Assembly (NCBI GenBank): GCA_964390725.1
Contig: CAYMIW010000013.1
Span: 9,086-73,085 of the forward strand
Reading direction: 5' to 3'
Length of the DNA: 64,000 nucleotides
Origin: an uncultured Syntrophomonadaceae bacterium
GTDB lineage: Bacteria > Bacillota > Dethiobacteria > DTU022
The translations under genes and the position numbers were made by a program. The notes beneath the pieces were generated by a model. It did no database searches. It had not been told where the DNA came from and saw only the letters and a list, made by a program, of their open reading frames with translations. Below, piece by piece: positions 1-18,134 of the stretch (within the stretch, counting starts at the first letter, position 1; each line of letters opens with the position of its first letter).

Positions 1-1139
1 GAACCATAGAATTCAATCATTATTTCGTTACATTCTTTATCAACATCCAAGTCCTTAAAATAGTCAGGATACATTATTTTAGCCATGTAAAGAGTTGACG
101 TAACTCCGGTGGTTGTATCATACCCACTCGCTGTTACTTTAACAGGATGCACATCTTCATTTTCTACCGCTGTAACTTCCCGTAGAATTGGGTCTCGAAG
201 AATGCTTCTTTTTGTATAATGCCCCGCGGCTTCATATTCATCGTCACCAGCATCGCCTTTGTATTCATTCATACTATTCAAAAAAATCACATCTGGATTC
301 CAAACGGCAATCTGCTCCAAGGAAATCTCATATGCATCAAAAGGTCCATAATCCATATTGTCAGCAACATTAATACCACCAGCTAAATTTATAGGTCCAT
401 AATTAACAAGCGTTCTTGAATTGCCTACCTGTGCAAAAACCCACAGAAAAGCTGTCTTCCTTTCCTCTTCGGGAATATTTTCGACAACGTCAGTCACCAT
501 CTGAATTTTTGACTCAGAATATTCAATCAATCTTTCAGCTCGCTCTTCTTTACCGACAATCTGTCCAACAATTCTTAGTATCTGGTAGTCCATTGCGCCT
601 AAATCTCCTATACATACTACCGGAATACTAGTTTGCTCTTGAATCGTGTCTGCCATGTCCGGAATCATCCATGATGCAAAAATCACATCCGGTTCATAAG
701 CCATGATTACTTGTACATTAGGCTCAGAACCTGTACCTGCATCAGGAATGTCATCAAGTAAATTTGGAAAAATCACTGACTCTGATACAAAAAAAGATGA
801 TTCTCCGCTTAGCATAGTTTTTATATTACCAGGTGCGGCCACCAATTTGTCTGTTGCACCCAACTGATACAATACTCTAATAGCTTCAAGCCCCGAAATA
901 TCGACTACTCTTTCAACATTTTTCTTAACTTCGACTTCTCTTCCGACTATGTCCGTTATTGTAATATAGTCTGCTTCATCGTCTTCCCCGGCGTTGCCAT
1001 CATCGGTAACTGTTACATCCTCGCTTACCGCATCGGAAGACTCATCAGACGGCCCTGCATTCTGAGCACATCCGAACACGCCTACGCAAAGTGACACGAA
1101 CAATAAAATAACTATGGTGTTTTTTAGAAATTTGTTCAT
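1..1139 (-). CDS. Partial (N-terminal about 380 aa) periplasmic-binding lipoprotein of the iron-siderophore/cobalamin (BtuF/FecB, TroA-like) ABC family. The C-terminus runs off the window start.
   Basis: Reverse-strand translation from the ATG at about 1139 gives MNKFLKNTIVILLFVSLCVGVFGCAQN..., a lipobox signal peptide. A long ORF of binding-protein character follows, resembling the 6497..7606 protein. An AGGAGG sits 6 nt upstream. The six-frame track omits it because no stop lies in the window. Confidence 0.65.
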   Translation of the reverse strand, partial: MNKFLKNTIVILLFVSLCVGVFGCAQNAGPSDESSDAVSEDVTVTDDGNAGEDDEADYITITDIVGREVEVKKNVERVVDISGLEAIRVLYQLGATDKLVAAPGNIKTMLSGESSFFVSESVIFPNLLDDIPDAGTGSEPNVQVIMAYEPDVIFASWMIPDMADTIQEQTSIPVVCIGDLGAMDYQILRIVGQIVGKEERAERLIEYSESKIQMVTDVVENIPEEERKTAFLWVFAQVGNSRTLVNYGPINLAGGINVADNMDYGPFDAYEISLEQIAVWNPDVIFLNSMNEYKGDAGDDEYEAAGHYTKRSILRDPILREVTAVENEDVHPVKVTASGYDTTTGVTSTLYMAKIMYPDYFKDLDVDKECNEIMIEFYG

Positions 1140-1279
1140 AACCATCCTCCTCTTATTTCTGTTTAATCTAAAAACACAATAAAAAACCTTCTCCAAAAGA
1201 GAAGGCAAAGTGCAAAAACTTAAAAATGTTAGTTAATAAATGCTAACACCCCCCTCTCATCTTCGTGAGAGAATCGTTG

Positions 1280-1430
1280 GAATTATTTGCGGCAGGTCTC
1301 CTGGCTTCGTTTCATCTTGATATTGCGCCTTCCCATTTTATCAACAGTGGCATTAGCAATTCAATCAACTACACAGTGGCGGGACCGCAACGGAATTTAA
1401 CCGTTTTCCCTATTAAGCACAATTAAGTAC
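1280..1430 (-). ncRNA. Cobalamin (AdoCbl) riboswitch upstream of the minus-strand binding-protein gene.
   Basis: The reverse complement reads ...AGGGAAAACGGTTAAATTCCGTTGCGGTCCCGCCACTGTG...GCCACTG...GGGAAGGCG...AGGAGACCTGCC. This is the B12-box core and the GCCACTG / GGGAAGGC 3-prime elements typical of the cobalamin riboswitch class. Confidence 0.7.
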
Positions 1431-1589
1431 ACCGCAATAATTATACTATTCAGTTTTCAACTCTTAACGCTCGTCAATAAAAAAAAACAGTTTTTTTACA
1501 TGGTTTTACAATAACTTTACTAAAATTTAAATAACCAGATTCAAAATAGCATAGCATTTTTGATTTGTCAATATACGTGTACCGAGACA

Positions 1590-1616
1590 TGTGTTTGCTC
1601 AGTGATATTGTCACCC
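1590..1616. repeat. Left copy of a perfect 27-bp inverted repeat (TGTGTTTGCTCAGTGATATTGTCACCC). A degenerate second copy (GCTCAGGGATAATGTCAC) lies at 1624-1641.
   Basis: The string is identical to the reverse complement of 5693-5719. It lies about 63 bp upstream of the transposase-like ORF start at 1679. Confidence 0.8.
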
Positions 1617-1678
1617 TAAGAATGCTCAGGGATAATGTCACTATGAGAGAGGAAAACTATCACTTGACCCAAAAATAG

Positions 1679-2040
1679 ATGATTAAGTTACAGGTAGTTG
1701 AAAAAGCATTAGAGGGTATGCTGACAGTTAAGGAAGCAGCGGCAGCGTTAGGGCTAAGCGAGAGGCAGGTGAAACGGCTAAAGGAAGGAGTAGCGGCTGA
1801 AGGACCTTCATTTATCATTCATAAAAACAGGAGTCGTACACCAACCAATGCAATTGCAGTTGAGACGAAGAAGGCAATAATCGATTTAAAGGAGTGGAGT
1901 TGCCCCGGTTTAATGAGCGTTTTGCGGTGGAACCGGTTTGTCCTGATTCTGTTTTTGCTGCTTTGGATCAAAGAATTAATCTTGATCACATTCTCTGCGT
2001 CAAAGAAGAGCGTAAGCTTGACGGTAATCATACTTTCTCT
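1679..2040 (+). mobile_element. Remnant of an IS transposase (HTH N-terminus, ISNCY/IS1202-like or IS481-like). It is frameshifted and truncated, so it is a pseudogene.
   Basis: MIKLQVVEKALEGMLTVKEAAAALGLSERQVKRLKEG...IIHKNRSRTPTNAIAVETKKAIIDLKE is a typical transposase HTH N-terminus. After about 75 aa the reading frame degenerates. A short transposase-like continuation (LPRFNERFAVEPVCPDSVFAAL) sits in the +1 frame, and no DDE domain follows. Confidence 0.5.
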
Positions 2041-2412
2041 TTATAAAGGGCGTTCTTACCAGATAAACTACCAGGGCTCCTCGGCACCGCCCAGGGCTAA
2101 TATTACTGTCCTCTACAGCCCTAAGTTCGGGGTGATGGCTGCTTACCAAGGCCAGGTTTATCCAACGCTGTCTGTGTTAACTCCTATCGTGAAACAAACT
2201 ATATCTAAAAATATTTCTCCTAAGATAACAGTAGAGACTAAACCGAATGATTCTCATCCATGGAAAGACTTTAATCGTGTTATCTTTATGAACAGTCTGA
2301 TCGTGAAATCTTAGAGGCTCTCTATAATTCAACTCTTGCATGGCGCTAACGTTCACCACTTAAAGGGGGGTGACATTTTCCCTGAGCATTGACAATTAAA
2401 TATTTTAGGGTC

Positions 2413-2447
2413 TTGACTGAATTATTGCTGATTATATATAATATAAT
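2413..2447 (+). promoter_or_regulatory. Sigma-A-type promoter for the Mn riboswitch and mntP.
   Basis: TTGACT, then an 18-nt spacer, then TATAAT (cttgactgaattattgctgattatatataat). It lies just upstream of the riboswitch. Confidence 0.4.
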
Positions 2448-2449
2448 AA

Positions 2450-2608
2450 TTCATGGGGGAGTAGTTGGCGTAATTTGCGCTGCAAGTCAACATACCGACT
2501 GAAACGGTCTGGCTTGCATTAAATAACGAGACTCATGTACGGCGTATGCTGTACCTGAGTCTTCCATAAAGACTTACAATTAGGTGCCATACGGCACCTA
2601 ATTTATTT
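2450..2608 (+). ncRNA. yybP-ykoY (Mn2+) riboswitch with a terminator-type expression platform.
   Basis: It carries the GGGGGAGTAG and GTCAACATAC motifs that I recall as the yybP-ykoY signature. A terminator hairpin (AGGTGCCATACGGCACCT plus a T-tract) at 2582-2606 sits immediately before the mntP RBS. Confidence 0.7.
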
Positions 2609-2620
2609 GAGGAGGAATTT

Positions 2621-3181
2621 ATGGGATTATTAGAGCTGTTTTTTGTAGCAATTGGTCTGTCAATGGATGCCTTCGCTGTAGCTATATGCAAAGGACTGAA
2701 CATGAGTAGGCAAAACTGGTTGCATAAATTTATCGTTGCCCTGTTTTTTGGTGTGTTTCAGGCTGTGATGCCTTTAATCGGATGGTTGCTGGGGAAACAG
2801 TTTGAGTCGTATATCAGCCGTTTTGATCACTGGATCGCTTTTGGACTGCTGATATTAATCGGCAGTAAGATGATCTTTGAAGTATTCAAAAAAGATGACT
2901 GTACTAGCGAGAGCAAAAACGATTTGAAAATAAAAGAGCTGACTCTGCTAGCTGTGGCAACCAGCATTGACGCTCTTGCAGTAGGTGTTTCTTTTGCCTT
3001 TTTAAGAGTTGCAATCGTTCCCGCAGTTTCACTGATTGGAGTAATTACATTTGTGCTCTCATTAATCGCCGTTAGTGCAGGGAATCGGCTTGGTGAAAAG
3101 TTTAAAGATAAGGCCGAGCTTGCAGGCGGGACAGTACTAATTCTTATTGGTACAAAAATTCTTCTCGATCATCTGCTCTAA
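2621..3181 (+). CDS. mntP: Manganese efflux pump MntP.
   Basis: The 186-aa product MGLLELFFVAIGLSMDAFAVAICKGL... shows the two-repeat MntP/YebN architecture (SxDAxAV motifs in both halves). A Mn riboswitch sits upstream. Confidence 0.85.
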   Translation: MGLLELFFVAIGLSMDAFAVAICKGLNMSRQNWLHKFIVALFFGVFQAVMPLIGWLLGKQFESYISRFDHWIAFGLLILIGSKMIFEVFKKDDCTSESKNDLKIKELTLLAVATSIDALAVGVSFAFLRVAIVPAVSLIGVITFVLSLIAVSAGNRLGEKFKDKAELAGGTVLILIGTKILLDHLL

Positions 3182-3457
3182 TATATCGATTAAATACAAT
3201 GCCTAATTGCCACTACAAGACTCTAACATAACAGCAGTTGGAGGGTAATTCACTTATTTAGAGAATTATGATGGTAAAGTGAAAGTCATATCTTAAGCGT
3301 TCTTACTTTAAGGGAATTCAGGCCATCTCTCTTTTTTGAGCATGAAAAGAGAGGCAGATTTCTATGTGTTATAGTTCTTGCCATAATATGAGCCTTAGGC
3401 AGTTTTACCCCTTAGCAAAATGAGAACCGCAAAGAATATGCCTAGTGAGGAGGGAAT

Positions 3458-3676
3458 ATGGTAAAGCGTTCATTGAAAGCTGCGATTGGTGTCAGCGTAG
3501 GTATCACAATAGGTGGAATTATTATTCCAAGAGTATTTATGTTTCCCCATCTGTATAATGATACATATCCGCCAATATTAGTTCATAGTATAATGTACTT
3601 TGTTGTTTCATATGTTGCTTGTTTTCTGTTTTTTTTGCTCTTTGAGTGGATCAAATTTAAGCTTAAACGCAACTGA
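3458..3676 (+). CDS. Small hypothetical membrane protein (72 aa, two predicted TM segments).
   Basis: An ORF with a hydrophobic profile and a GGAGGG RBS. No homology was recognised. Confidence 0.3.
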   Translation: MVKRSLKAAIGVSVGITIGGIIIPRVFMFPHLYNDTYPPILVHSIMYFVVSYVACFLFFLLFEWIKFKLKRN

Positions 3677-3774
3677 CTAATCTCTGTATTAGATAAGTTA
3701 TTCGCAGTAAATCTTAATAGCTTCAAGCAAAAATTCAGTGCATCCCTCAGCGATGGCATCGTAGTACATCAGGT

Positions 3775-3987
3775 GAGGTAAAGCAGCTTTCTTACACATA
3801 CTCTAAAGGTACGTCACCTGCAGTTAAGGATTTAAGTTTTTCTGTAAAACATGGTGAGGTTTTTGGTTTTCTTGGGTCCAGCGGGTCGGGAAAATCCACC
3901 ACGCAAAAAATCCTGATTGGGCTACATAGCAAAGATGCTACCTTAGAAGATGTCTTTATTAAGGTGACAGGGAGGAATCTGGCTTGA
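3775..3987 (+). pseudogene. ABC-transporter ATPase remnant. The Walker-A N-terminus is fused to the extreme C-terminus by an internal deletion.
   Basis: The in-frame translation reads ...YSKGTSPAVKDLSFSVKHGEVFGFLGSSGSGKSTTQKILIGL, then HSKDATLEDVFIKVTGRNLA and a stop. The Walker A box and C-terminal tail are present. The ABC signature and Walker B are missing. Confidence 0.5.
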
Positions 3988-4538
3988 AACAGCTTCTCTC
4001 TACTATATACTGTGACTTTTTAATCCAGCTCAGAAACGGGTTTTATACCGCAACTTTTTTTGTGTTATTATTTGTTGTGCTTGGTTTAAGCCGTTTGCCC
4101 AGGGTTGATTGGGGATGGCTTTTACCGCTGGTAATCCTTTTATATATGAACATGACAGCCTACTACTTTATTGCAGCACAGGTTCTGCTGGAAAAAGACG
4201 AAGGTGTTTCAGTAATACGTGCAGTTATGCCCTTTTCTCCCCTGCATTATCTCTGCTCTAAAATAGTAACACTTGGTTTTTTGGCAGTTGTAGAGAGCAC
4301 TGTGCTGGCAATTGCGGTTTACGGTTTTGACTATAATTGGCTCCCTTTTATCAGCGGCATTTTGCTAGCTTCTGCTTTTTATGCGCTTGTGGGGTTTATC
4401 AGTGTCACTCGTTATAATTCTTTGGAAGAATACCTGCTGCCTTCTGTGCTGTACGGTGCCCTTGCTTCTTTGCCACTAATTACAGGCTTAGCACAAATAA
4501 ATTCCATGATCTGTTTTTCTGCATCAGACATGCGTTGA
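3984..4538 (+). CDS. ABC-2 type permease-like membrane protein, probably a truncated partner of the degraded ATPase.
   Basis: 184 aa with several TM helices. It overlaps the ATPase remnant stop in the ATGA fashion typical of ABC-2 exporter pairs. Confidence 0.4.
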   Translation: MKQLLSTIYCDFLIQLRNGFYTATFFVLLFVVLGLSRLPRVDWGWLLPLVILLYMNMTAYYFIAAQVLLEKDEGVSVIRAVMPFSPLHYLCSKIVTLGFLAVVESTVLAIAVYGFDYNWLPFISGILLASAFYALVGFISVTRYNSLEEYLLPSVLYGALASLPLITGLAQINSMICFSASDMR

Positions 4539-4763
4539 AACTTTACCATTAATGCATTTTCACCCCTATTATTTATAGAATTAATAATAGTATCAGTAAT
4601 TTATTTGCTGTTATAAAAAAGCAATAATTTTAATTCTACTCTTTGTAGTTATGTTATAATTTTACATGTTTTTTTGATGAATGAGTCAATATCCATATTT
4701 AAGCAAGCACTATATTAATACTACTAAGTATTGGTGGCTGTAATTCAAACTGCCTCCAACACA

Positions 4764-5468
4764 CTATTCATCAAACTGAACAGTGAAATATCTCCTGGTA
4801 TTCTCTTCATGAAATTCAATTTTAACATTTCTGGTTACGCCTTTTACATAATTATCACTAACTATTAAGCCATTATCAAGAACTTGAATTTTATCTGAGT
4901 CCAGCTGAGGATAATAATCACTCAATCCTTTGTAGAATGCTAAAAAATCATCTCTGTTATAATCGGTAGCGTATTTTAAGTCAGACTGAAGGGTATCTTG
5001 ATAATAAGTAATCAGTCTATCATCTTTTACTAAATGAAACGGAATAATAAACTCAGTATCTAAATATTGAACCAAAGGACTGAAGAAGACATACGCATTC
5101 GGATATCCCTCAGACGTATTACGACTTGTAGTTACGGTTAAGACGACAACAGCATTTTCCCCGCCTGCATTTTCAATTTCAATTAATAACTTGCCCTTTT
5201 GGAACTCTGTTACAGTATAGTTAACTTCTTCAGAGGACAACTTGCGAACTTTTTCAGCCATTTCCGCAATAGAATATTTGCAGACAATTTTTGTTGATAG
5301 TGTCCCGTCCCTACTTCCATATTTAAATTCAAGGGGTATTTCTATTAGCTTATTTGAGAAAAAATCTTCTGTCCTTAATACGTCAATTTTCTTCCACCCT
5401 CCTGCTGCACAAGCAGTAAATAGCAGTATTGACATTATTAAAAAACATATCAGCAGCTTTATTCTCAC
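4764..5468 (-). CDS. Hypothetical lipoprotein.
   Basis: With a GTG start, the product is MRIKLLICFLIMSILLFTACAAGG..., a lipobox signal followed by about 210 aa of soluble domain. No family was recognised. Confidence 0.5.
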   Translation of the reverse strand: MRIKLLICFLIMSILLFTACAAGGWKKIDVLRTEDFFSNKLIEIPLEFKYGSRDGTLSTKIVCKYSIAEMAEKVRKLSSEEVNYTVTEFQKGKLLIEIENAGGENAVVVLTVTTSRNTSEGYPNAYVFFSPLVQYLDTEFIIPFHLVKDDRLITYYQDTLQSDLKYATDYNRDDFLAFYKGLSDYYPQLDSDKIQVLDNGLIVSDNYVKGVTRNVKIEFHEENTRRYFTVQFDE

Positions 5469-5692
5469 AAAATCACACATCCTTAGTTATTGTTAAAGAA
5501 ACTGGGCAGAATATGCAGCATTTATGCCCAGCTCTTCAATCCATCATGGACGAAAGAAAGTATAGCCTGTCATGACCCCACTATAGACAACGTGAGCTTG
5601 ATTGCTCCATCCATAGTGACAAATTATTTCTGTATTGTTACTGTTAACACCATAACCGACAACAGCGTGCCAGCCTGGATTATTACCGTGTA

Positions 5693-5719
5693 CGGGTGAC
5701 AATATCACTGAGCAAACAC
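5693..5719. repeat. Right copy of the 27-bp perfect inverted repeat (reverse complement of 1590-1616).
   Basis: GGGTGACAATATCACTGAGCAAACACA is the exact reverse complement of TGTGTTTGCTCAGTGATATTGTCACCC. Confidence 0.8.
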
Positions 5720-5789
5720 AAACAAGCCAACCTACTATTGACATATTTTTATGCATCATGCTATATTTGAGAAAATCATATATAGTGAA

Positions 5790-5945
5790 CGTAAGGTGCC
5801 CATGTATTGGGTGAAAAGGGAAGTCCGGTGAAAATCCGGCGTGGACCCACCACTGTAATAGGATACAAATCCCCAAGGTGCCACTGGAATTTATTTCTGG
5901 GAAGGCGGGGAGGAGGATAAGCCTAAAACCAGGAGACCTGCCTTA
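5790..5945 (+). ncRNA. Cobalamin riboswitch.
   Basis: GGTGCC...AAAAGGGAAGTCCGGTGAAAATCCGGCGTGGACCCACCACTGTAA...GCCACTGG...GGGAAGGCGGGG...AGGAGACCTGCC shows the B12 box and the conserved 3-prime elements. It lies upstream of the corrinoid-type ABC importer. Confidence 0.75.
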
Positions 5946-6064
5946 ATGTTGTAATGATAGATGAGGGGTTATCAGATATCATTGTGAAGTGGCTTAAGAT
6001 GGGAAAGTCTCTTAGTAAAATACTAAGAGACTTTTTTAGTTACTGCTAAAAGGAAAAAGTAAAT

Positions 6065-6252
6065 ATGCGGAAGAGGTATGCCATGAAGAGAATCGCATTT
6101 TATGGAAAAGGTGGAATTGGAAAGTCTACAGTAGTTTCTAATATGGCAATAGCTTTAGCATAATCTGGGCAAAAAGTAATGTTACTTGGATATGATCCAA
6201 AATCTGACTCTATTATAAACATTATAAATGCAAAAGAATCCCGACAGTTTTA
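6065..6252 (+). pseudogene. NifH/BchL-family (nitrogenase Fe-protein-like ATPase) N-terminal fragment, interrupted by an in-frame stop and truncated.
   Basis: MRKRYAMKRIAFYGKGGIGKSTVVSNMAIALA, then a TAA at 6161, then SGQKVMLLGYDPKSDS... This reproduces the NifH P-loop and switch-I N-terminus. Only about 60 codons are present. Confidence 0.55.
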
Positions 6253-6496
6253 GAACAAATGAAAAAGAATATTGAGGGTTTTTGTAATGAAATGCAAAAA
6301 GATAGTTCTGCCATTTTAATTCCGCTCTTTGGGGATAAACTGTCTGGTGATTTCCAATATGGAATACAACGCGCACAGAATTGTGTTGCTCAATATAAAA
6401 TAATTGACAGAAGGGATATGGAGAAAATAACAATCGATATAAATGATTATGTGCTTCTTTATACCCAGTCAAAATAAAAATCCAGGAGGGAATAAA

Positions 6497-7606
6497 ATGA
6501 AGTTAAAATATTTATTAGGGATAATGTTACTTGTAATATTTTGTATAATAACCCTACCAGCATGCAATACACCTAGTGAAAAAAGTAACTCGATCATAGA
6601 TGATGATCAAAGCGAAGTATCTCAAACAAGGATTATAAAAGATTTAAGTGGCAACGATATTGCAGTCCCTTATGCTAAAGATATAGAAAAGGTGATTATT
6701 GTTGCACCGCCATATCTTTCTTTCTTCCTATCTGTAGTTCAACAACCAGAGATGGTTGTTGGTGCACATCCTGGAGCTTTTAATATGGCTAACCCAGAAT
6801 TATTAAAAATAATGATGCCAAATCAGGGAAGTGTTAATACACAATTTCTTGATGGCTTTAAATCAAATACTGAAGAAGTATTATTAATGGATCCGGATAT
6901 TATCTTTATCTATGGAGAATTTCAAAGAGAAGGGTTAGAGAAAGTAGATATCCCAATTGTAAACCTGCAAGAATCTACAGGAGCTAATGTAGAGAGTTCT
7001 TCATTAGGAATTGTAAATCTTATGAGAGACATTTTTGAGATAAAGGGTGACAATTTATTTCAAAAAGAATGGGAACAATCTAACAAACTGGCTAAAGAAG
7101 TCTTTGAAAAGAATAAAAAAAATGAGCAACAAAGAGGATTAGTTGTTTTTTCAAATACTAGTGGGACCATAACTGTTCGAGGCGTTGGGTCTTTTGGCGA
7201 TGATTGGTTAAAAACATCAGGATTAATAAATGTTGTAGAAATGCAAGGAGACAATTTAGAAGTGTCCATGGAAGATATATATAATTGGGATCCAGATATT
7301 ATTTATACTATGGGCCCAGTGGGAGCTGAAACTATGATAGCCAACCAAGCTGAAGGACAGGACTGGTCATATGTTAATGCATTTAAGTCGGAGAGGATAT
7401 ATGATATTCCGGAAAGCTTAACAAAGTGGCATGCGGGTTCTCCAGATGCTCCATTAACACTGCTTTGGATGTTAAGTAAGAATTTCCCTGATGACTTTTC
7501 AGAGGAAGAATATAATGAGAAAATGAAACAATACTATAAGAATAATTATAGCATTGAACTTACTGATTCCTTATTAGAATCTATTTTGTATCCGATAAGG
7601 AATTAA
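6497..7606 (+). CDS. Periplasmic-binding lipoprotein of an ABC importer (BtuF/FecB-like, corrinoid or siderophore binding).
   Basis: MKLKYLLGIMLLVIFCIITLPACNT... is a lipobox signal and an AGGAGGG RBS precedes it. It is the first gene after the cobalamin riboswitch and is followed by FecCD permease and ATPase genes. Confidence 0.8.
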   Translation: MKLKYLLGIMLLVIFCIITLPACNTPSEKSNSIIDDDQSEVSQTRIIKDLSGNDIAVPYAKDIEKVIIVAPPYLSFFLSVVQQPEMVVGAHPGAFNMANPELLKIMMPNQGSVNTQFLDGFKSNTEEVLLMDPDIIFIYGEFQREGLEKVDIPIVNLQESTGANVESSSLGIVNLMRDIFEIKGDNLFQKEWEQSNKLAKEVFEKNKKNEQQRGLVVFSNTSGTITVRGVGSFGDDWLKTSGLINVVEMQGDNLEVSMEDIYNWDPDIIYTMGPVGAETMIANQAEGQDWSYVNAFKSERIYDIPESLTKWHAGSPDAPLTLLWMLSKNFPDDFSEEEYNEKMKQYYKNNYSIELTDSLLESILYPIRN

Positions 7607-7607
7607 A

Positions 7608-8624
7608 ATGGCTGAAAGGAAAATAGACAAATTTATTTTGTTTATGATATTTTCTCTATCTATAATACTGTGTTTGATATTTTTATCACTCTTCGTTGGG
7701 CGATTTTATGTATCGCCCAACGAAGTTATATCAGTATTAACATCTAAGTTGTTGAGCAGCTCAGTTGAAGAGATTAGCACAACTGTAGTTTGGGAAATTC
7801 GGTTTCCTCGATTACTATTAGCAATATTAGTGGGTGCTGGATTAGCTGCTTCTGGAGCGGCGTTTCAGGGGTGTTTTTATAATCCATTAGTTAGTCCAGA
7901 TATCCTTGGGGTTAGCTCAGGTGCGGGATTTGGTGCAAGCCTGGGAATATTATTAACAGGGGTATCTACAGGAGTCACAAGTATATTGGCCTTTGCATTT
8001 GGTTTAGTTAGCGTTTTACTTAGTTGGATATTGTCTAAGATGCGTAAAGGGGCTGAAATGCTATCTTTGGTTCTGTCTGGAATTATTGTTTCAGCAGTTT
8101 TTAATGCGCTAATATCTCTGGTGAAGTTAGTAGCTGATACAGATTCTTTGTTACCGGCTATTACTTTCTGGTTAATGGGTAGTTTTTCAGGTGCTACAAT
8201 AGAGACTATTAAATATGTAGCAATCCCAATAATTTTAGGTATTATTGCCTTGCTATTTTTGCGATGGAGAATAAATTTATTAACTCTTGGGGATGAAGAA
8301 GCTAAGTCTTTAGGGACAAACCCTGGGAGAATTCGGCTAGCTGTAATTATTTCTGCTACAGTCATTACTGCAACTTCAGTTATGGCTGCAGGGGTTATTG
8401 GGTGGGTTGGATTAATTGTACCAAACTTGTGCCGCATGATCGTAGGTGATGATTATAGAAGGTTATTACCAGCATCTTGTGTTGTCGGTGCGATTTTTAT
8501 GTTAATAGTAGACTTAGTTGCAAGATCATTAACGGCTGCAGAAATACCAATTGGCATTCTTACTGCTCTTATCGGTGCACCATTTTTTGCGCTAGTTTAT
8601 ATAAGAGGAGGGAAAGCTAGATGA
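7608..8624 (+). CDS. FecCD/BtuC-family ABC permease.
   Basis: 338 aa and polytopic. It has the conserved FecCD motifs (RxPRxLxA near the N-terminus and a glycine-rich C-terminal region). Confidence 0.85.
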   Translation: MAERKIDKFILFMIFSLSIILCLIFLSLFVGRFYVSPNEVISVLTSKLLSSSVEEISTTVVWEIRFPRLLLAILVGAGLAASGAAFQGCFYNPLVSPDILGVSSGAGFGASLGILLTGVSTGVTSILAFAFGLVSVLLSWILSKMRKGAEMLSLVLSGIIVSAVFNALISLVKLVADTDSLLPAITFWLMGSFSGATIETIKYVAIPIILGIIALLFLRWRINLLTLGDEEAKSLGTNPGRIRLAVIISATVITATSVMAAGVIGWVGLIVPNLCRMIVGDDYRRLLPASCVVGAIFMLIVDLVARSLTAAEIPIGILTALIGAPFFALVYIRGGKAR

Positions 8625-9391
8625 GATTATCCGTTCAAAAAGGGACATTTTACTATCACAAAAGTGAGCCTATTTTTACTAATGTTTCTTTTTTGTTAGA
8701 GCAAGGGCGAATTATGACAATATTAGGTTCTAATGGTATTGGGAAAACAACCCTTCTTAAATGTATTATGGGATTTAACAAATGGATATCTGGTAATTGT
8801 TTTGTTGATGATATGGAATTAAAGGAAATTGAAAAAGTTGATGGAATTGGATTTGTTCCGCAAGCTCATAGATCTGTTTTTAGCTTTAGTGTTGAAGAAA
8901 TGGTGTCTTTAGGTTGTGCAAGAAGGGTACCATTATTTGGGGTTCCTATAAAAGAAGATAAAACTAGTGTAAGGAGTGCTTTGCAAACAGTGGGGATTGA
9001 AAAACTATCAAATCGCCTATGCTCTCAACTAAGCGGAGGCCAACTCCAGCTTGTATATATAGCACGTGCGATAGTTAGTGAACCCCAATTAGTTATAATG
9101 GATGAGCCTGAAGCACATTTAGACTTTAAAAATCAATACATGATCCTTAATTTGATTGAAAAATTAAATATCGAAAAGAAAATATCTTTTTTGATCAATA
9201 CTCATTGTCCTGATCATGCTCTAAGAATATCTCATAATGCATTAATTTTAGGGAAAAATGAATATGTTACCGGAAAAGCAGAAGAAATAATTAATGCTAA
9301 TAATATTTTAAGTTATTTTGAAGTGCATACAAAAATATTTAAAATCCCTGGAATAACTAGGCCTGCTGATGCTTTTGTTGTTGTTGATTAA
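8621..9391 (+). CDS. ABC-transporter ATP-binding protein (BtuD/FecE-like).
   Basis: Walker A GSNGIGKTT, signature LSGGQLQ and Walker B VIMDEP. Its start overlaps the permease stop (ATGA). Confidence 0.85.
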   Translation: MRLSVQKGTFYYHKSEPIFTNVSFLLEQGRIMTILGSNGIGKTTLLKCIMGFNKWISGNCFVDDMELKEIEKVDGIGFVPQAHRSVFSFSVEEMVSLGCARRVPLFGVPIKEDKTSVRSALQTVGIEKLSNRLCSQLSGGQLQLVYIARAIVSEPQLVIMDEPEAHLDFKNQYMILNLIEKLNIEKKISFLINTHCPDHALRISHNALILGKNEYVTGKAEEIINANNILSYFEVHTKIFKIPGITRPADAFVVVD

Positions 9392-9410
9392 AGGAAAGGA
9401 GAATTTAAAA

Positions 9411-10409
9411 ATGAAATCTGCAAAAACAATGCCGGAGTATCCTGCTGGTAAAATATTGGGTATAACAAATAATATGCTAGAGGCTCAAATAATATATTCA
9501 GCGTTAGAACTTGAATTGTTTTCGCATATGGAGACTGGAAAAGATATTATTGAATTAAGCCATATGGCTAACTGTGATATAAGAAATTTAGAATTGATTG
9601 TAAAGGCTCTTGTGGCTATTGGTTATTTGAAAAAAGAGACTAATACTTACACAAACTTTCCTGAAATCAATTACTATTTAAATAAAAATAGTGATATGTA
9701 TATTGGTGAGCATATACTTTATTGGCGAGACATGACTAATTTGCATGATTTAACAAATCTCGTAAGACATGGTAGTTCTGCAGAAGGTCAAAACTTAAAT
9801 AATGGTGCAGATTTTTTTGATTTCCGCTCTATGGGAAAGAGTGCTTGTAATGTTATTTATACTGGTAGAGTTCAAAGTTTTATTAGCGCATTAGAAAAAT
9901 TGTTTAGCACTTCCGATGAAATTAACGTTTTGGACATGGGTGGTGGATCAGGAATCTTAGCATTAGAAACGGCTATAGCTTTCCCTAACTCACAGGTTAC
10001 AGTCTTTGATCAAGCAAAAGTAATTCCTATCACCATAGAAAATATTAAAAAATATGGGCTAGATAAAAGAGTCAATACAAAAACAGGGAATTTTGTTACT
10101 GACAACATTGGTAATAATTATGGTCTGATTATAGCAAGTGGTGTTATGGATTTTGCAGGTGATTTAGATCTTATGGCAAAAAAATTACATTCAGCACTAA
10201 ATAAAAAAGGGTATTTAATAGTAACGACTCACGCCATAAATGAGGATTATACTGCTCCTAAGCAGGCAATACTAGGGTGGTTATCATCAAGAATTAATGG
10301 TTTAGATATATTAAAAACAAATAAAATGATTTGTAACACTTTATATAATAATGGATTTCAAAATGTTTTTAGTAATGAAAATGGGTTTCATGGGTTAATA
10401 AAAAAGTAA
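9411..10409 (+). CDS. Class I SAM-dependent O-methyltransferase (family-2 type with N-terminal dimerisation domain).
   Basis: LDMGGGSG motif I. The overall layout resembles small-molecule O-methyltransferases. Its start at MKSAKTM follows the ATPase gene. Confidence 0.6.
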   Translation: MKSAKTMPEYPAGKILGITNNMLEAQIIYSALELELFSHMETGKDIIELSHMANCDIRNLELIVKALVAIGYLKKETNTYTNFPEINYYLNKNSDMYIGEHILYWRDMTNLHDLTNLVRHGSSAEGQNLNNGADFFDFRSMGKSACNVIYTGRVQSFISALEKLFSTSDEINVLDMGGGSGILALETAIAFPNSQVTVFDQAKVIPITIENIKKYGLDKRVNTKTGNFVTDNIGNNYGLIIASGVMDFAGDLDLMAKKLHSALNKKGYLIVTTHAINEDYTAPKQAILGWLSSRINGLDILKTNKMICNTLYNNGFQNVFSNENGFHGLIKK

Positions 10410-10820
10410 TGGCTCTTGAAATCGCCGGGATATCCGTTTCATGAATAGCCCCGCCCTCGACAAAGGGCATGAAGTCGTCGTAATACGCTTTCTCCAGCTT
10501 AAGGGATCTCATCGTCACGATGTTGCTTTCGTCCATTTTAAATTGGTAAAATAATTCGAAGATCTTGGGGTTATCCAATGAAGGACTCGGCTGTCATCCT
10601 GGCCTGCTGCTAAATAAGGCCTCCTCATAGATGATAGATTTTGTCGCGTCAACAAATTTGGACTTCACAAAGTCTTTTTTGATGTTTTTTGCATCTTTTT
10701 GAATGTCGCTCAACTCTCAGGCGGCGAGACTATCCCCGCCATTCGTGATAATGAAAAATTCACTTGACCCTGCATTGACTATTGTGATAGTATGCGAACG
10801 CACTACTCCTATAGTCTGAG

Positions 10821-11186
10821 GTGATTGAGTTGGAACTCATAAAGTTGTTTGACAGTGAATTGAAAATCATGGACATAATCTGGCGCGAGGGGAAAACCAC
10901 CGCCAGGCATATTAGCTTGATTGCCGCTACGGAAATCGGCTGGAACAAAAATACTACTTATACAGTTATTAAGAAGCTCATTGATAAGAACGCCGTTTGC
11001 CGTGAGGAACCGGGCTTCGTTTGCTTCGCGCTCATAAACCGCAGCGACGTTCAAAAAGACGAAACCGAGCGGCTGATTAATAAGCTCTGGGACGGCTCAA
11101 AGAAAGCGTTCTTTGCCGCCTTCATTGACGACCAGCTTGCCGAAGACGAGCTTGCCGAACTTAGAGCCCTGATAGAAAAGAAGTGA
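10821..11186 (+). CDS. blaI: BlaI/MecI/CopY-family transcriptional repressor.
   Basis: The 121-aa winged-helix product (ELKIMDIIWREGKTTARHI...TVIKKLIDKNAV...) is typical of penicillinase repressors. Confidence 0.7.
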   Translation: MIELELIKLFDSELKIMDIIWREGKTTARHISLIAATEIGWNKNTTYTVIKKLIDKNAVCREEPGFVCFALINRSDVQKDETERLINKLWDGSKKAFFAAFIDDQLAEDELAELRALIEKK

Positions 11187-11613
11187 CACCAATGCTATCC
11201 GAAATCTTTTACTGGGCGCTAAACATCAGCATCATCGGAGGAGCGACTGGGCTAATCGTTGCTATTGTGCGAAAGATACCAGGATTCCCGCGCTTCGCAG
11301 CGTATGCTCTATGGCTTCTGCCTTTGGTTAGGCTTTGGATTCCATTCGGCATAGCGAGCCGCTGGAGTTTGTTTGTGACGCCAAGGTTCTGAAAGCAATG
11401 GGCGAAGGTAAGGCAAAAGACTACGCCGCAGCGCTGCTGTCCTGTGCCGCCGGGCGAAGCTATTTCATCAGTGCCTTTGGCGGAGCGAAAATACAAATAC
11501 GCATTGAAAGCATTTTATCGTATAAGAGGCTGATCGTATTATCTACAGCAGCATTCGGTGTGCTGATCATCGCCATAAGCTTTGTTCTTATTACTAACGC
11601 CGTTGGAGGTTAA
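11183..11613 (+). pseudogene. BlaR1/MecR1 (M56 peptidase) sensor remnant. It is frameshifted and lacks the HEXXH region.
   Basis: N-terminal TM segment MLSEIFYWALNISIIGGATGLIVAIVRKIPGFPRF..., then a second frame reading HSEPLEFVCDAKVLKAMGEGKAKDYAAALL (a BlaR1-like motif). The two pieces lie in different frames and the gene is much too short. Confidence 0.5.
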
Positions 11614-11617
11614 GCCT

Positions 11618-12773
11618 ATGAAGCAGTTCTTCTGTTTAGTGATTGCGATCATCATCGCTTGCGCCATATCAGGCTGCGGTTCAAACCGGTAAACAGTTTC
11701 AGCCTGCACGAGACGCCGCAGATCTACGTTTTGCAAGATGGAGAACCATTCGCCATAATGCCAACAGTAACTCTTTACGAAAACGGCAACGCACGGCTCT
11801 CACAACCGCCCATCAGCAGCTTCGGACTGTTCACCATCGGGCGGTACGAGATAAACGAAAACGAATTAACGGTTACGCACAGCGAAAACGTAAGCGCGAC
11901 ATTTGAAATATCTGATAGCGGGGATACACTGACGCTGAAATCAGCGAGCTTGGGATTTACACAAGTCGGAGCAGTTTATAAATACCGTTCCAACGCTGAT
12001 TATTTAAGCCAATACCCCGAAATCGAAGGCGAAACGCTAAGCTAACAGTTGACGCTTTACACGAACTGGCGAAGAAAGCCCCAAATCTTACCGTCTCGGA
12101 CTTCGAGAAGTACGCGCATTTTGATATTGACCCGAATTACCATGTATTCGACGTTGACAGAGAATACACGCTCACAGTGATTTATGACATTGACGGCAAC
12201 ACAAGCTGCACGGTTGAGCGCAATTCGAGTGGCGAGAGTTCCCCGTTAAACCTAAACGGCTCAACTAATCTTGTTTTTGATTCATACCTCGGCTTGGCGA
12301 TCATTACAAAATACGAAACCCAAAAATGGCTTGATTATTTCATGGATGACGAACTGCCTTGGGACGAAAGCAAGAAACTGGCGCTTCCCGAATTTCCCGG
12401 CGTCATTTTTACTTGGACATCTGAAAAAGTGACAGCGGGAGATAAAGAACTATTCCAGGGAATGCCTGTATGGAACGTGTACCTGATGGACTTGACGAAT
12501 GACGGCAAGCCTGAGTTCTGTGCCTCAATTAGCTTCGGTTCCGGTATTATTGATAATCGCATCATTGTTTACGATTATGACGCAGATAAGGAATATCAAC
12601 TGGCTGACCGAATGCACTACGATTATTTTCTGTCCATGCAAGATGGGCTTCTTATGGCCACCCAAACCGGCTATATGGATAAAAAAACGCTCGTGTCAGC
12701 GGAACTGCAGCTTATTAACGGAGAGATTTTCAGGTTCGGTCGTTCAATGGAAGAAAAGAAGGAAACACCATAA
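11618..12773 (+). pseudogene. Lipoprotein gene broken by two frameshifts (signal peptide, then ORF 11659-12045, then ORF about 12048-12773).
   Basis: An ATG at 11618 gives MKQFFCLVIAIIIACAISGCGSNR and a stop. The sequence continues in the -1 frame to 12045. The third frame is open from about 12045 through 12773 and shows similar beta-rich repeats (TLTV... motifs). Confidence 0.4.
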
Positions 12774-12802
12774 ACGCTAAGGACGCATTGGACATTGCCA
12801 AC

Positions 12803-12811
12803 GGGGGGGGG
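12803..12811. repeat. G9 homopolymer tract.
   Basis: acgggggggggtatc. The tract lies between the frameshifted lipoprotein gene and the Y1-transposase stub. Confidence 0.9.
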
Positions 12812-12826
12812 TATCTTCAACTCCTT

Positions 12827-12919
12827 CGAATAGAGTATTAAGAAGTTATTGCGAGCATTACCACGGGAAGTAACATGATGTACTGCTCCAGGATATTCAA
12901 TACGTAGTAGCCTGTCCAT
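12827..12919 (-). mobile_element. N-terminal stub (about 31 aa) of an IS200/IS605-type Y1 (HUH) transposase or RAYT.
   Basis: MDRLLRIEYPGAVHHVTSRGNARNNFLIL matches the conserved YHVxxRGN N-terminus of Y1 transposases. The rest of the ORF is non-homologous junk. Confidence 0.5.
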
Positions 12920-13030
12920 AGAAACAGGCTATTGTGAAGTTTGCTTGATTGCAAAACCTGACCCCAATATGTTCGGGCTTTGGTAAAGTTTTCATGGTAT
13001 AGTTTAGTCATAACGATTCCTCCACAAAAA

Positions 13031-13600
13031 TCACATGGATTTCAAGTTGTTATTGAGCCTGTCAACGATTTTTTCAAAATCTCTTTGTCGCGCTTCTTCT
13101 GTCTTAAATGAAAAGTATCTCCTTGTGTATGTGCGCCGAACAGACGGCGACATATTATTAAAATTCTCATAAGCCGGAGATATGCCGCAGAGTTTTTCGG
13201 TGAACGATTCAATATGTTCATCGGTTATCGGATTGCCTTTGGGGGCATCCCATGTTCCATTCTTTTTCGCTGTTTCCACGGCGTTCTCACCCAATTCGGT
13301 CATAATGCCTTTTTGCCGCAACACTTCAACCGTTTTCTTGTTCTTTTCAGACCAACTGCTTTTTATGCGGCGTTTCGTAAAATATTTCAAGTATTTGGTG
13401 TTGTCAATGCTCTGCACCCGACCGTCAATCCATCCGAAACAAAGAGCTTCCTCCAAAGCATCGTTAGCAGATAAGGTAACAACTGCTTTCGTCTTTCCGA
13501 ATACGAGCCATACGCCCTCGCTTGTTTCAGAATTGTTCTGTAGCCATGCACGGAAATCCTCGCGGGTTGAAAATAGTAATTCGGTTATATCTACTCTCAT
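13031..13600 (-). CDS. YdeI/OmpD-associated family protein (DUF1801-like).
   Basis: 189 aa with N-terminal FREDFRAWLQNN, a GWIDG motif and a C-terminal RRxYxxxY segment, all typical of this family. Confidence 0.6.
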   Translation of the reverse strand: MRVDITELLFSTREDFRAWLQNNSETSEGVWLVFGKTKAVVTLSANDALEEALCFGWIDGRVQSIDNTKYLKYFTKRRIKSSWSEKNKKTVEVLRQKGIMTELGENAVETAKKNGTWDAPKGNPITDEHIESFTEKLCGISPAYENFNNMSPSVRRTYTRRYFSFKTEEARQRDFEKIVDRLNNNLKSM

Positions 13601-13748
13601 AATTATTTCTCACTTTCGTTTAGGCTGTTAAGGATTTTTCCCATAGTTTGGCCAAAAGAACCAGCTGTAGTGCCATTCCTCTTGCTTTCATCCACTATGT
13701 TAACCATAGCACAGGTTCGTTTATAGATAGCAAGTTAGACATGGCTTG

Positions 13749-16454: not shown

Positions 16455-16667
16455 TTTTTATCCTGCCTTATTATTTTTATGAACTCTTAGCAGCTTCATT
16501 TTGTGAATCATAAATATTATAACACTTGCTTAAACTTTAATCTAAATACTTTGGTTTTTCCTGTATATTCACCGTTTTGGCTCAACATCCCGCATATTCA
16601 TTCGGAATTAAAGCGGCTTGCTTAAAAGCATTGTTTCACCAACCATTCTTCTACTTCATAAAAAAAT

Positions 16668-16697
16668 AATGGCCATGAAAACAATGGCCATTATCAA
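16668..16697. terminator. Perfect palindromic hairpin (ATAATGGCCAT-N7-ATGGCCATTAT), a possible bidirectional terminator.
   Basis: 11-bp perfect arms. It lies in the 690-bp gap between the FmdE-like gene end and the GGDEF gene start. No clear U-tract follows. Confidence 0.3.
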
Positions 16698-17144
16698 AAT
16701 ACAGCTTCAAAATTAAAGAAGCCGGGGCATGCAATATTGCATTTATTGCTTAATCTTACGCACCGCCCTGCTAACTGAGGCATAGTGAAGACCTAAAAGC
16801 TCGGCAACAATGCTCAGAGCAAAGTTTTCCAACCTCATTTACTTCATTATGCCGCGCACAATCTGCAGATCTTCTGGCGTTGCGTCCCATTTAATCTATG
16901 GTTTTCGACCAAGAAGAATTGCATCAAATACAGTCATGTTTAACGATTTATTATCCTGATCTACATATGTCAGAGAGCCTCTGGCCATACTGATTACCAT
17001 AACCACTCAGGTGTTAACACCTAAACTCCTTGTCGTATCAGACCCGTTTCCCATTGCATTGTAATTCCAGCGGTTAAACATAAAAATATCAGGGTTGCGA
17101 AAAAATTATTGCAACGTATGCATGTCCGAAAAAAAATAGCTTTT

Positions 17145-18134
17145 TTATTTGTTTTGCTTTGCAGCACACACCTGGCAGCATAAGCCCTTATACCCGGGTA
17201 CGCATTTTTTTAAGTCAACAATTTCATTACAGATTGAGCATTTGCTGTAATGAGTGCAGCCCTGAAAACGGGGTGGGTGTATACTGACGATTGTTTTTTT
17301 AAAAAGCTGTTCATCGCTTAAATCTAAAATTTCATGAACGGCATTGTTGACAGCTATGCTATATTCTTCAATTTCAGTCTGCGAGGCTTTGCCTGAGGCA
17401 ATTCGTTGATCTATATCAACGGCACTGTCAATGATGAGAGCCTCGTCGTTAATGAGACTCAAACGCAAAACATTCACCGGCAGGTATCCTTCACCGGAGA
17501 GGCCAAAGTAGTATACCTGCTTACCCAGATCATAGGCAAAGAAATTCTGGTTGCCAATGGTACAGCCTGTCATAAGCTGAACAGCCTCAATTCCTGAACC
17601 CATGTTTTCCGCCAACGCGAACTGTGTGGAGGTTTTTTCCCGATCAAAACCCAGTTCGATACAGGCCAGAACCGAGGCCCGATAACCGACCGCAAGCTCT
17701 GGACAAACATGACCGTGATAGTGAGCCAGATTGGCAAGCTCCGCTGGTAATAATGAATAGTTGCCGACCGCATTCAGGTTGCCTTTACTCAATAACTGCG
17801 ATACTCTATTATATAGAGGTCCACTTTCTATGTTATGAAGATACTCTCCATTTACTTTGTACTTCAACAGCCACCTGCCCTGATTTAGGTCTTGCTGCCC
17901 TTTCATAAACTCAAAAGCCAGACAGTAGATACCTGTTGATGTTAGTACTAAATACTGTGGATTTTCTTCAATACTCTTAAATTTGTGCAGTAGCTTTAAA
18001 ACTTCATAGTGTTCACCACGCCATTTGAAACCGAGCGGAAGATTTTGTGAGCTGTCATACTGCACCAGCACCAGTTGCTGTATAAACTGAACATCTTCTT
18101 GTTCTATTTTTTTCATTAACTGTTTAATATTCAA
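17145..18134 (-). CDS. FmdE/FwdE-domain protein with an N-terminal extension and a C-terminal Cys4 zinc ribbon.
   Basis: HYHGHVCPELAVGYRA is the hallmark FmdE motif. The C-terminus has CSICNE...CCQVCAAKQ cysteine pairs. About 120 N-terminal residues have no recognised family. Confidence 0.6.
   Translation of the reverse strand: MNIKQLMKKIEQEDVQFIQQLVLVQYDSSQNLPLGFKWRGEHYEVLKLLHKFKSIEENPQYLVLTSTGIYCLAFEFMKGQQDLNQGRWLLKYKVNGEYLHNIESGPLYNRVSQLLSKGNLNAVGNYSLLPAELANLAHYHGHVCPELAVGYRASVLACIELGFDREKTSTQFALAENMGSGIEAVQLMTGCTIGNQNFFAYDLGKQVYYFGLSGEGYLPVNVLRLSLINDEALIIDSAVDIDQRIASGKASQTEIEEYSIAVNNAVHEILDLSDEQLFKKTIVSIHPPRFQGCTHYSKCSICNEIVDLKKCVPGYKGLCCQVCAAKQNK

Follow-up and report, generated by a model that had tools for sequence, protein, structure and literature searches.

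What do two cobalamin riboswitches on opposite strands control, and what might the genes behind them do for the cell? We addressed this question in a stretch of 64,000 nucleotides from an uncultured Syntrophomonadaceae bacterium (GenBank assembly GCA_964390725.1, contig CAYMIW010000013.1; the whole stretch is referred to as the window), for which an earlier note, made from the letters alone, had described two riboswitched importers. Each aptamer does head an operon for a type II ATP-binding cassette (ABC) importer, as that note held, but its reading missed a set of nitrogenase-like (NFL) reductase genes. Judged from their genes and those of their relatives, the two importers make up the transport side of two conserved and mutually related types of gene cluster, in which import is coupled to a putative ATP-dependent NFL reductase.

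Two cobalamin riboswitches head importer operons

An Rfam cmscan of the whole 64-kb window at the gathering threshold returned four matches: two cobalamin riboswitches (RF00174, family threshold 31.5 bits), a SAM riboswitch and a tmRNA. In this covariance-model search both cobalamin segments scored well above the family threshold, and they lie on opposite strands at approximately the coordinates that the earlier note had proposed. The elements of the two leaders are:

1176-1206, minus strand: terminator-like hairpin in the platform of riboswitch 1 (9 bp, GC-rich, followed by a T-run; terminator scan and RNA fold)
1274-1451, minus strand: cobalamin riboswitch aptamer 1 (RF00174, 107.8 bits, E 5e-26, model positions 1-189 of 189)
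1543-1571, minus strand: promoter-like site directed toward riboswitch 1 (TTGACA-17-TATTTT, TG-extended; consensus match only)
5738-5767, plus strand: promoter-like site (TTGACA-18-TATATT, TG-extended, 11/12 matches; consensus match only)
5777-5959, plus strand: cobalamin riboswitch aptamer 2 (RF00174, 112.4 bits, E 2.3e-27, model positions 1-189 of 189)
about 6000-6044, plus strand: terminator hairpin in the platform of riboswitch 2 (18-bp stem followed by a U-run; RNA fold)

Aptamer 1 has the conserved GCCACUG and AGCCAGGAGACCUGCC core. The terminator scan found one site near riboswitch 1 as compared to 0.2 expected, while the hairpin of riboswitch 2, which the simple scan overlooked because its stem is AT-rich, folds at -25.3 kcal/mol (z -5.7), with equally good folds in 0 of 200 shuffles. 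The promoter-like site at 5738-5767 ends ~10 nt before aptamer 2, and a second promoter candidate for riboswitch 1 lies at 1440-1467. Since each locus pairs an aptamer with a terminator, both riboswitches are most simply read as transcription-terminating OFF switches, which would repress their importer operons when corrinoid is plentiful.

The genes and gene remnants that follow the riboswitches within the window are:

1-1139, continuing beyond position 1, minus strand: SBP1, lipoprotein substrate-binding protein (Peripla_BP_2, E 4e-23; lipobox VFGC)
6083-6238, plus strand: relic of a nifH-like gene, first ~52 codons (NCBIfam NifH/CfbC/nitrogenase-reductase-like, E 1e-17)
6244-6477, plus strand, in another frame than the nifH relic: relic of a short NifK-like gene, C-terminal part, containing the open reading frame (ORF) 6259-6477 (tblastx)
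6497-7606, plus strand: SBP2, lipoprotein substrate-binding protein, 369 aa (Peripla_BP_2, E 2e-12)
7608-8624, plus strand: FecCD permease, 338 aa (PF01032, 309.9 bits)
8621-9391, plus strand: ABC ATPase, 256 aa (PF00005, 98.2 bits)
9411-10409, plus strand: SAM-dependent methyltransferase, Methyltransf_2 plus dimerisation domain, 332 aa (Pfam; longest ORF from 9369)

At both loci the first intact gene behind the riboswitch is thus a lipoprotein gene of the Peripla_BP_2 family, in keeping with the earlier note, and the complete permease and ATPase that it had placed in the second locus are found at 7608-8624 and 8621-9391.

Locus 1 encodes an intact reductase and locus 2 its relics

Only the 5' part of SBP1, 379 of its 399 codons, lies inside the window. 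An exact look-up of the MntP protein encoded between the two loci recovered a 76-kb contig (L001; ENA ERZ27252295) that is identical to window positions 1-13181 at every base (100% identity), and in this contig a permease and an ATPase directly follow SBP1, past position 1, as the earlier note had thought possible. The operon continues further: its order is SBP1 (399 aa), FecCD permease (366 aa), ATPase (263 aa), NflD (Oxidored_nitro, 442 aa), NflK (Oxidored_nitro, 423 aa) and NflH (Fer4_NifH, 251 aa). The five genes after SBP1 sit just left of the window, and this copy of the cluster is intact. Just past the end of nflH, at L001 1-1541, the contig holds an SBP1 paralogue truncated at its N-terminus (822-1541, 239 aa) and, in the same stretch, an NflK-like Oxidored_nitro fragment (1-580); by its gene remnants this looks like a further, decayed copy of the same cluster type.

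At locus 2, aptamer 2 and SBP2 are ~540 nt apart, and nitrogenase-like relics occupy this space. The nifH-like relic, whose translation begins MKRIAFYGKGGIGKST, is interrupted by an in-frame TAA (6161-6163) and shares 52-63% identity with the NifH-like N-termini of related clusters. Behind it, positions 6244-6423 align by tblastx with residues ~95-154 of a 176-aa Oxidored_nitro protein of a related cluster (L038) at 32% identity, and the two relics together match that cluster with a joint E of 2.6e-24; the 72-aa ORF at 6259-6477 has no family match and is explained by tblastx alone. The deletion junction lies at ~6239-6243, and ~2.2 kb are missing relative to L038, comprising most of nifH', D' in its entirety and K' over its first half. 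As these alignments predict, locus 2 is a degraded sister of an importer-NFL cluster whose original order was riboswitch-NifH'-D'-short K'-SBP2-permease-ATPase-methyltransferase.

The surviving part of locus 2 has intact transporter and methyltransferase ORFs and normal ATPase motifs. The methyltransferase belongs to the same gene string as the importer, and orthologues with 46-54% identity stand beside the transporter in four further loci (L035, L038, L039 and L040). Its best matches in the Protein Data Bank (PDB) are an uncharacterised protein and O-methyltransferases of the DsyB and natural-product types; its NCBIfam matches to BchU and CbiT are weak and far under the cutoffs, and it could not be equated with any known enzyme. 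A recent duplication of one locus into the other was rejected, as SBP1 and SBP2 are 19% identical, the permeases 34% and the ATPases 35%. After the methyltransferase comes a gene for a BlaI/Penicillinase_R-type repressor (10830-11186), followed in sister contigs by a Peptidase_M56 fragment; the contigs differ in this region, which indicates strain variation.

The reductase is an uncharacterised branch of the nitrogenase superfamily

NflH (L001 1984-2739; PF00142) contains the motifs GKGGIGKST, GVGCAGRG and DVVCGGFAMP, that is, a P-loop and the two cluster-bridging cysteines. Scored against NCBIfam, NflH reached 351.5 bits with CfbC (cutoff 402) and 336 bits with NifH (cutoff 394). NflD and NflK match the NifE, NifD and BchB models, the best being NifE for NflD (83.5 bits, cutoff 505) and DPOR BchB for NflK (119.6 bits, cutoff 490), and none of the three proteins reached the curated cutoff of any characterised family (CfbC/D, Bch, Nif). 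Sequence matches in the PDB are weak, with best E values of 1e-16 for NflD and 2e-21 for NflK. The AlphaFold model of NflD (pLDDT 87.8) folds as a nitrogenase component-1 subunit, with TM scores of 0.7-0.78 to MarD, NifK, NifD/K, NifEN and BchB/N at 14-19% identity; assignment to one characterised clade by structure was tried and rejected, since Foldseek placed NflD about equally far from MarD, NifD/K, NifEN and BchB/N. By sequence and predicted fold, NflDKH is a real, uncharacterised branch of the nitrogenase superfamily.

Several features bear on the metal cluster that this enzyme may hold: firstly, C34, C59 and C121 of NflD are invariant in 27 family members and by motif reading correspond to C62, C88 and C154 of NifD; secondly, by motif alignment NflD has MNLVFERTS where NifD has LNLVHCYRS, so that the equivalent of Cys275 is missing; thirdly, the NflK family has no conserved cysteine, and the Asp ligand of BchB is not kept, NflK having Thr by motif reading; finally, NifB, NifE and NifN genes were not seen in the cluster neighbourhoods examined. 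In the D/K component, the three D-subunit cysteines probably bind a single [4Fe-4S] cluster. Together, the three cysteines of NflD, the lack of Cys275, the cysteine-free NflK and the missing NifB/E/N genes suggest a cluster chemistry that resembles that of tetrapyrrole reductases more than that of nitrogenase or Mar. DPOR (BchLNB), COR (BchXYZ) and CfbCD likewise combine a NifH-like ATPase with a D/K-type catalytic component, in which one subunit has three cysteines, and have neither FeMo-cofactor ligands nor NifB/EN; unlike theirs, the genes described here stand with an importer under a B12 riboswitch and not in a pigment or F430 pathway.

The same features bear on a B12-independent bypass on the pattern of metE and nrd, in which the NFL enzyme, importer and methyltransferase would replace a B12-dependent reaction, for example in sulfur or methionine salvage like methylthio-alkane reductase. 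B12-independent isozymes are typically repressed by B12 through riboswitches, but importers of the FecCD/Peripla_BP_2 kind are not used for small sulfur compounds, and the operons examined contain no sulfur-metabolism genes. Mar and Isr, Group IV NFL enzymes that have been characterised, do act in sulfur metabolism (PMC13474568); however, a Cys275 equivalent and a nearby NifB-like gene, both typical of the Mar type (PMC13474568), are absent here. We regard such a bypass as quite unlikely.

Two published sets of orphan NFL genes invite comparison. Group VI enzymes of Elusimicrobia have no P-cluster or FeMo-cofactor ligands, and tetrapyrrole reduction has been proposed for them (bioRxiv 10.1101/765248; PMC13474568). 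By their published description they are alike as orphan NFL enzymes, but they have many radical SAM genes alongside and occur in Elusimicrobia, Gracilibacteria and Myxococcales, whereas the present clusters carry type II importers, methyltransferases or CobN-like chelatases and occur in Clostridia, a Desulfobacter and Methanothrix. Dos Santos et al. (2012; PMC3464626) noted that certain clostridia and methanogens have NifEN-like and NifH genes together with ABC transporter genes, the examples being C. botulinum CLM_0808/0809, A. oremlandii Clos_0313/0314, C. cellulovorans and M. labreanum. As described, these share three P-cluster-type cysteines in the NifE/D-like protein and none conserved in the NifN/K-like one; unlike in the clusters studied here, a riboswitch is not mentioned, and the proposal made was only one of 'coupling metal transport to cofactor assembly'.

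Importer-NFL clusters and their riboswitch are conserved

The colinear arrangement of locus 1 (type 1; SBP1-permease-ATPase-NflDKH) recurs with RF00174 immediately upstream in a Clostridia metagenome-assembled genome (MAG; L007), in a Sporobacter (L008) and in L026. In a second Sporobacter (L019/L025) the riboswitch is followed by a methyltransferase, a NikA-like transporter, two MsbA-like ABC proteins and then NflDKH. The arrangement from which locus 2 would have decayed (type 2) is intact in a human-gut organism (L036, L037, L044), where RF00174 precedes NifH' (248-249 aa), D' (429-436 aa), a short K' (176 aa), an SBP2-like protein, a FecCD permease and an ATPase. L038 has the same order plus a methyltransferase, again with RF00174 ahead, and Acetobacterium woodii DSM 1030 has the type 2 order with a full-length K (397 aa) and a cobalamin riboswitch of 100.5 bits directly ahead of the nifH-like gene; in CP002987.1 the riboswitch occupies ~10488-10670, and the genes from the nifH-like one to a methyltransferase occupy ~10865-17679. 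SBP2 is 42-51% identical to the binding proteins within intact NFL clusters, and the riboswitch-linked loci are divergent among themselves, with identities of 42-74% for NflD and 43-68% for D'.

Archaeal and further clusters broaden this picture. In Methanothrix and related archaea, NflDKH is accompanied by a single permease/ATPase pair and by 2-5 tandem SBP1 paralogues, and CobN-like/Mg-chelatase-family genes of ~1230-1270 aa flank NflDKH in six of these loci (L010, L014, L015, L016, L023 and L042, from Methanothrix and relatives; L042 has two copies). In L012, both transporter types surround a single NflDKH. Class I methyltransferases recur in NFL clusters, and the methyltransferase-transporter module also occurs in four loci without NFL genes, still headed by a riboswitch (L035, L039, L040, L045).

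At least nine divergent bacterial loci have RF00174 upstream. The riboswitch was present at all eight species-level SBP2 relatives with at least 42% identity that were examined, namely the window, L035, L036/L037/L044, L038, L039, L040, L045/L046 and A. woodii (L123). When metagenomes were scanned with the SBP2 family, 80 loci were recovered, and among these the riboswitch was confined to relatives of at least 45% identity; the idea that it accompanies all SBP2 relatives was rejected, as none was found for relatives of 26-39% identity (nhmmer profile, and Rfam on 17 loci). A third and more distant cluster type, H-D-K-SBP-permease-ATPase, occurs in 37 of 70 SBP2 relatives at or below 34% identity (L054-L122), and its K subunit has a different motif, HDAGGC. 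An exhaustive phmmer search with NflD yielded 54 cluster representatives at E ≤ 1e-30, and the NflD clade is therefore small. These distributions indicate that importer-NFL coupling is broad, while control by a B12 riboswitch marks two particular subclades.

Some neighbourhoods of these clusters hold further genes. L026, the closest type 1 relative, carries a divergent pair of cobalamin riboswitches (5463-5676, minus strand; 6183-6383, plus strand), of which the minus-strand copy heads an SseB_C-domain protein, two unknown proteins, a cysteine desulfurase and SufE. In L036/L037, larE-, larB- and larC-like genes (ThiI/QueC, AIRC and Ni_insertion; 4127-6808) stand directly upstream of the riboswitch-headed NFL cluster; larE, larB and larC serve the synthesis of the nickel-pincer cofactor. 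In A. woodii (L123 16874-21293; CP002987.1 ~18.5-22.9 kb), the NFL cluster and a MarR gene are followed by a second UbiE-type methyltransferase and a Nik/Opp-type importer, which echoes the methyltransferase and NikA-like arrangement before NflDKH in Sporobacter L025. Genes for DUF6179, DUF6323 and DUF2284 proteins lie near SBP2-type modules (L039 1-2492; L040 17703-18353), and the window itself has FmdE-domain and DUF6179 genes at a distance of a few kb from locus 2 (17145-19748, minus strand); the DUF6179 neighbourhood may reflect shared synteny or a functional link.

The binding proteins are not recognisable as BtuF

The earlier note had called both binding proteins BtuF-like. They do have the Peripla_BP_2 fold and lipoprotein location of BtuF, and both loci have the BtuC/BtuD-type layout of a FecCD permease and an ATPase beside the binding protein. 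The label itself did not hold up: NCBIfam, PDB sequence, profile and Foldseek comparisons gave no BtuF match, the PF01497 fold being all that is shared. SBP1 and SBP2, as different as they are from each other (19% identity), both fail to resemble BtuF structures and group with metal-chelate/siderophore-type binders instead, an outcome that contradicts the label under the refuting condition set in the earlier note. The BtuF model was absent for both proteins at E ≤ 0.01 in NCBIfam, where the best matches were archaeal PGF-CTERM, ferrichrome, SstD and IsdE models, all far under cutoff. Against the PDB, phmmer returned TM0189 (2etv), 4ovk and YiuA for SBP1, and 4ovk, MolA and the Ni-binding CeuE for SBP2, with BtuF in neither set, and a profile of 18 SBP2 relatives did not reach BtuF at E ≤ 1. 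Both proteins are ~100 residues longer than E. coli BtuF.

The predicted structure of SBP2 (AlphaFold, pLDDT 89.8) gave a similar picture. Its leading Foldseek matches are 4ovk, H. pylori CeuE with Ni-His, 4pag, 4hn9, MolA and YiuA, followed by haem and siderophore binders, and BtuF is missing from the top 50. The closest structure, 4ovk, is 27% identical and has no assigned ligand. H. pylori CeuE (Ni-His2), H. influenzae MolA and Yersinia YiuA align with the SBP2 model at TM 0.66-0.69 by query length; they are, however, only 16-20% identical to SBP2 in sequence, and none of them is known to be regulated by a B12 riboswitch. Five tryptophans are invariant across the SBP2 family, but no histidine or cysteine is. 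Corrinoid binding by SBP1 and SBP2 may still be compatible with these results; ligand class in this fold is hard to tell from sequence.

These comparisons bear on whether the window simply encodes two ordinary BtuFCD-type corrinoid importers that differ in cobamide or cobinamide specificity, with the NFL genes functionally unrelated or accessory. B12 riboswitches commonly precede btuFCD homologues in Firmicutes, and BtuC is the best NCBIfam match of both permeases; but their scores (214.8 and 189 bits for permease 2; 219.4 and 213.5 bits for permease 1) fall far under the respective cutoffs of 461 and 334. The 2-5 tandem paralogues in Methanothrix are what one would expect for a family of related ligands, and SBP2-type transporters also occur on their own. 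Against this stand the lack of any BtuF match and the tight linkage of NFL and transporter genes across Bacteria and Archaea, with conserved order and with genes that overlap or are closely spaced. E. coli BtuFCD, too, is a type II importer of FecCD permease, ABC ATPase and Peripla_BP_2 protein, but the operons here add a nitrogenase-like reductase and/or a methyltransferase. We consider two ordinary corrinoid importers unlikely.

Uptake of iron-siderophore complexes or haem, with an incidental riboswitch association, finds some encouragement in the siderophore and haem binders among the PDB matches and in homologues annotated at source as 'iron complex transport system substrate-binding protein'. 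Scores against siderophore and haem equivalogs are nevertheless all far under the NCBIfam cutoffs, and RF00174 is kept both across the divergent bacterial loci and at every close SBP2 relative examined. Such a role is highly improbable.

A predicted role in cobamide supply

We give an even chance to the reading in which both loci are acquisition modules induced by B12 starvation, combining import, ATP-driven reduction and sometimes methylation. When B12 is scarce, the operons would be transcribed and the importer would take up a B12-related compound, in the favoured version a tetrapyrrole of corrinoid type or a precursor that is incomplete or oxidised, with a cobalt chelate as the main alternative. 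NflH, the predicted ATPase, would hand low-potential electrons to NflDK, which would reduce the imported compound in the cytoplasm; in some clusters the reduced compound would then be methylated or metal-loaded, and it would feed the cobamide pool. A tetrapyrrole or corrinoid-type substrate is favoured because of the cysteine pattern, the CobN-like chelatases of archaeal clusters and the recurrent methyltransferases. More tentatively, the riboswitch-controlled NFL enzymes would form a new functional class in cobamide supply that reduces an imported corrinoid-related tetrapyrrole in the cytoplasm. Such enzymes might act on a precursor, either oxidised or incomplete, or on the cobalt centre of a corrinoid, and a SAM methyltransferase or CobN-like chelatase could help in some lineages.

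Several observations weigh against this proposal. The type 1 cluster occurs without a detectable riboswitch in a Desulfobacter (L021) and in a Firmicutes MAG related to Desulfofundulus (L041), and 0 of 11 loci of the third cluster type have a riboswitch or other Rfam family upstream. The SBP2-type modules that occur without NFL genes (L035, L039, L040), together with the loss at locus 2, imply that the reductase is dispensable for the transporter. The nearest characterised folds to the SBP2 model bind small metal chelates or oxyanions and not tetrapyrroles, while the NikA-like system that replaces the FecCD type in L025 and the DUF4198 protein in L041 both suggest metal uptake. Co-transcription within loci 1 and 2 is inferred from gene spacing only.

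Some of these points favour cobalt acquisition, in which a chelate of cobalt (or of nickel and cobalt) would be imported for de novo B12 synthesis and the NFL enzyme would help to release or process the metal complex. The structural neighbours of SBP2 include binders of Ni-His2 (CeuE), molybdate (MolA) and iron chelates (YiuA); the NikA-like SBP_bac_5 system of L025 precedes NflDKH in a riboswitch-headed operon, a Nik-like system adjoins the A. woodii cluster, and cobalt transporters are known under B12 riboswitches. However, no nitrogenase-like enzyme is known to act on a simple metal chelate, five invariant tryptophans with no invariant His or Cys are unlike typical metal-ion sites, and CobN-type chelatases work on tetrapyrroles. 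On balance we find cobalt acquisition doubtful, and keep to reduction of an imported corrinoid-type compound as the favoured mechanism.

The block between the two loci is probably decayed mobile DNA

The two loci are separated by a block with the following features:

1590-5720: intervening block of 4.1 kb, bounded by a perfect 27-nt inverted repeat (1590-1616 / 5694-5720)
1621-2390: ISNCY-type transposase remnant with its own 21-nt inverted repeats (1621-1641 / 2370-2390, 95%)
2621-3181: MntP
3984-4538: FLQE3/ABC-2 permease fragment
4764-5480, minus strand: unknown lipoprotein gene

No match like the 27-nt inverted repeat is expected by chance (0 expected), and it has no further copies in the window or in unrelated loci; the 21-nt pair is related to it. 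The transposase is incomplete, residues 5-71 matching NF033594 at 60.8 bits (cutoff 250) and the rest of ORF 1679-2314 remaining unmatched, and ORFs at 5242-5699 have no family matches. The block is probably decayed mobile DNA, unrelated to the importer-NFL function.

The earlier note had suggested that one divergent B12-regulated region was later split by this 4.1-kb insertion. The leaders of the two loci align solely at the 27-nt repeat, whose arms end 18 nt (left, 1543-1571) and 17 nt (right, 5738-5767) outside the -35 boxes. Since both arms are similarly spaced from outward, TG-extended promoters, the block ends are mirror images in layout, although the sequence between arm and promoter differs at the two ends. 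The inverted repeats of insertion-sequence type and this geometry fit an insertion between two divergent promoters, and a split of this kind may have occurred. On the other side, we found no target-site duplication and no direct repeat flanking 1590 or 5720, and no insert-free allele: every contig spanning the interval among the 23 (MntP) and 18 (permease 2) examined is arranged alike. The two transport systems are only 19-35% identical, locus 2 is more AT-rich (GC 31-38% versus 39-40% in locus 1), and in relatives the cluster types lie apart, ~135 kb from each other in one Sporobacter contig. A divergent riboswitch pair does exist in L026, but its second riboswitch heads unrelated genes.

Other features of the window

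The SAM riboswitch (60811-60916, minus strand, 81.5 bits) lies ahead of metK (59535-60722, minus strand), which is followed by a gene for a pterin-binding-domain protein (58572-59378, minus strand). The tmRNA gene (20631-20984, minus strand, 186 bits) stands beside RNase R (22053-24203).

Implications

In the literature that we searched, key subscription papers being outside reach, no paper ties NFL genes to B12 riboswitches, and a 2026 review of NFL enzymes draws no such link (PMC13474568). Control of importer-NFL clusters by B12 riboswitches thus appears to be new in the searchable literature; the type of regulation itself is well known. The same review counts the discovery of NFL functions among the greatest challenges of the field, gene context having been of little help so far (PMC13474568).

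Most nitrogenase-like clades are without known function, and a B12 riboswitch directly ahead of one is a concrete, testable clue: it indicates B12-responsive expression and a probable role of the enzyme in supplying cobamides or cobalt. The two neighbouring clusters also make for a natural comparison, one being intact and the other having lost the reductase while keeping its transporter and methyltransferase. The B12 riboswitch regulon gains a new kind of gene set, and with it a warning that not every riboswitch-linked Peripla_BP_2 protein should automatically be named 'BtuF'. If the favoured mechanism is true, these clusters would represent a previously unknown route of B12 salvage or remodelling in acetogens, gut Clostridia and Methanothrix.

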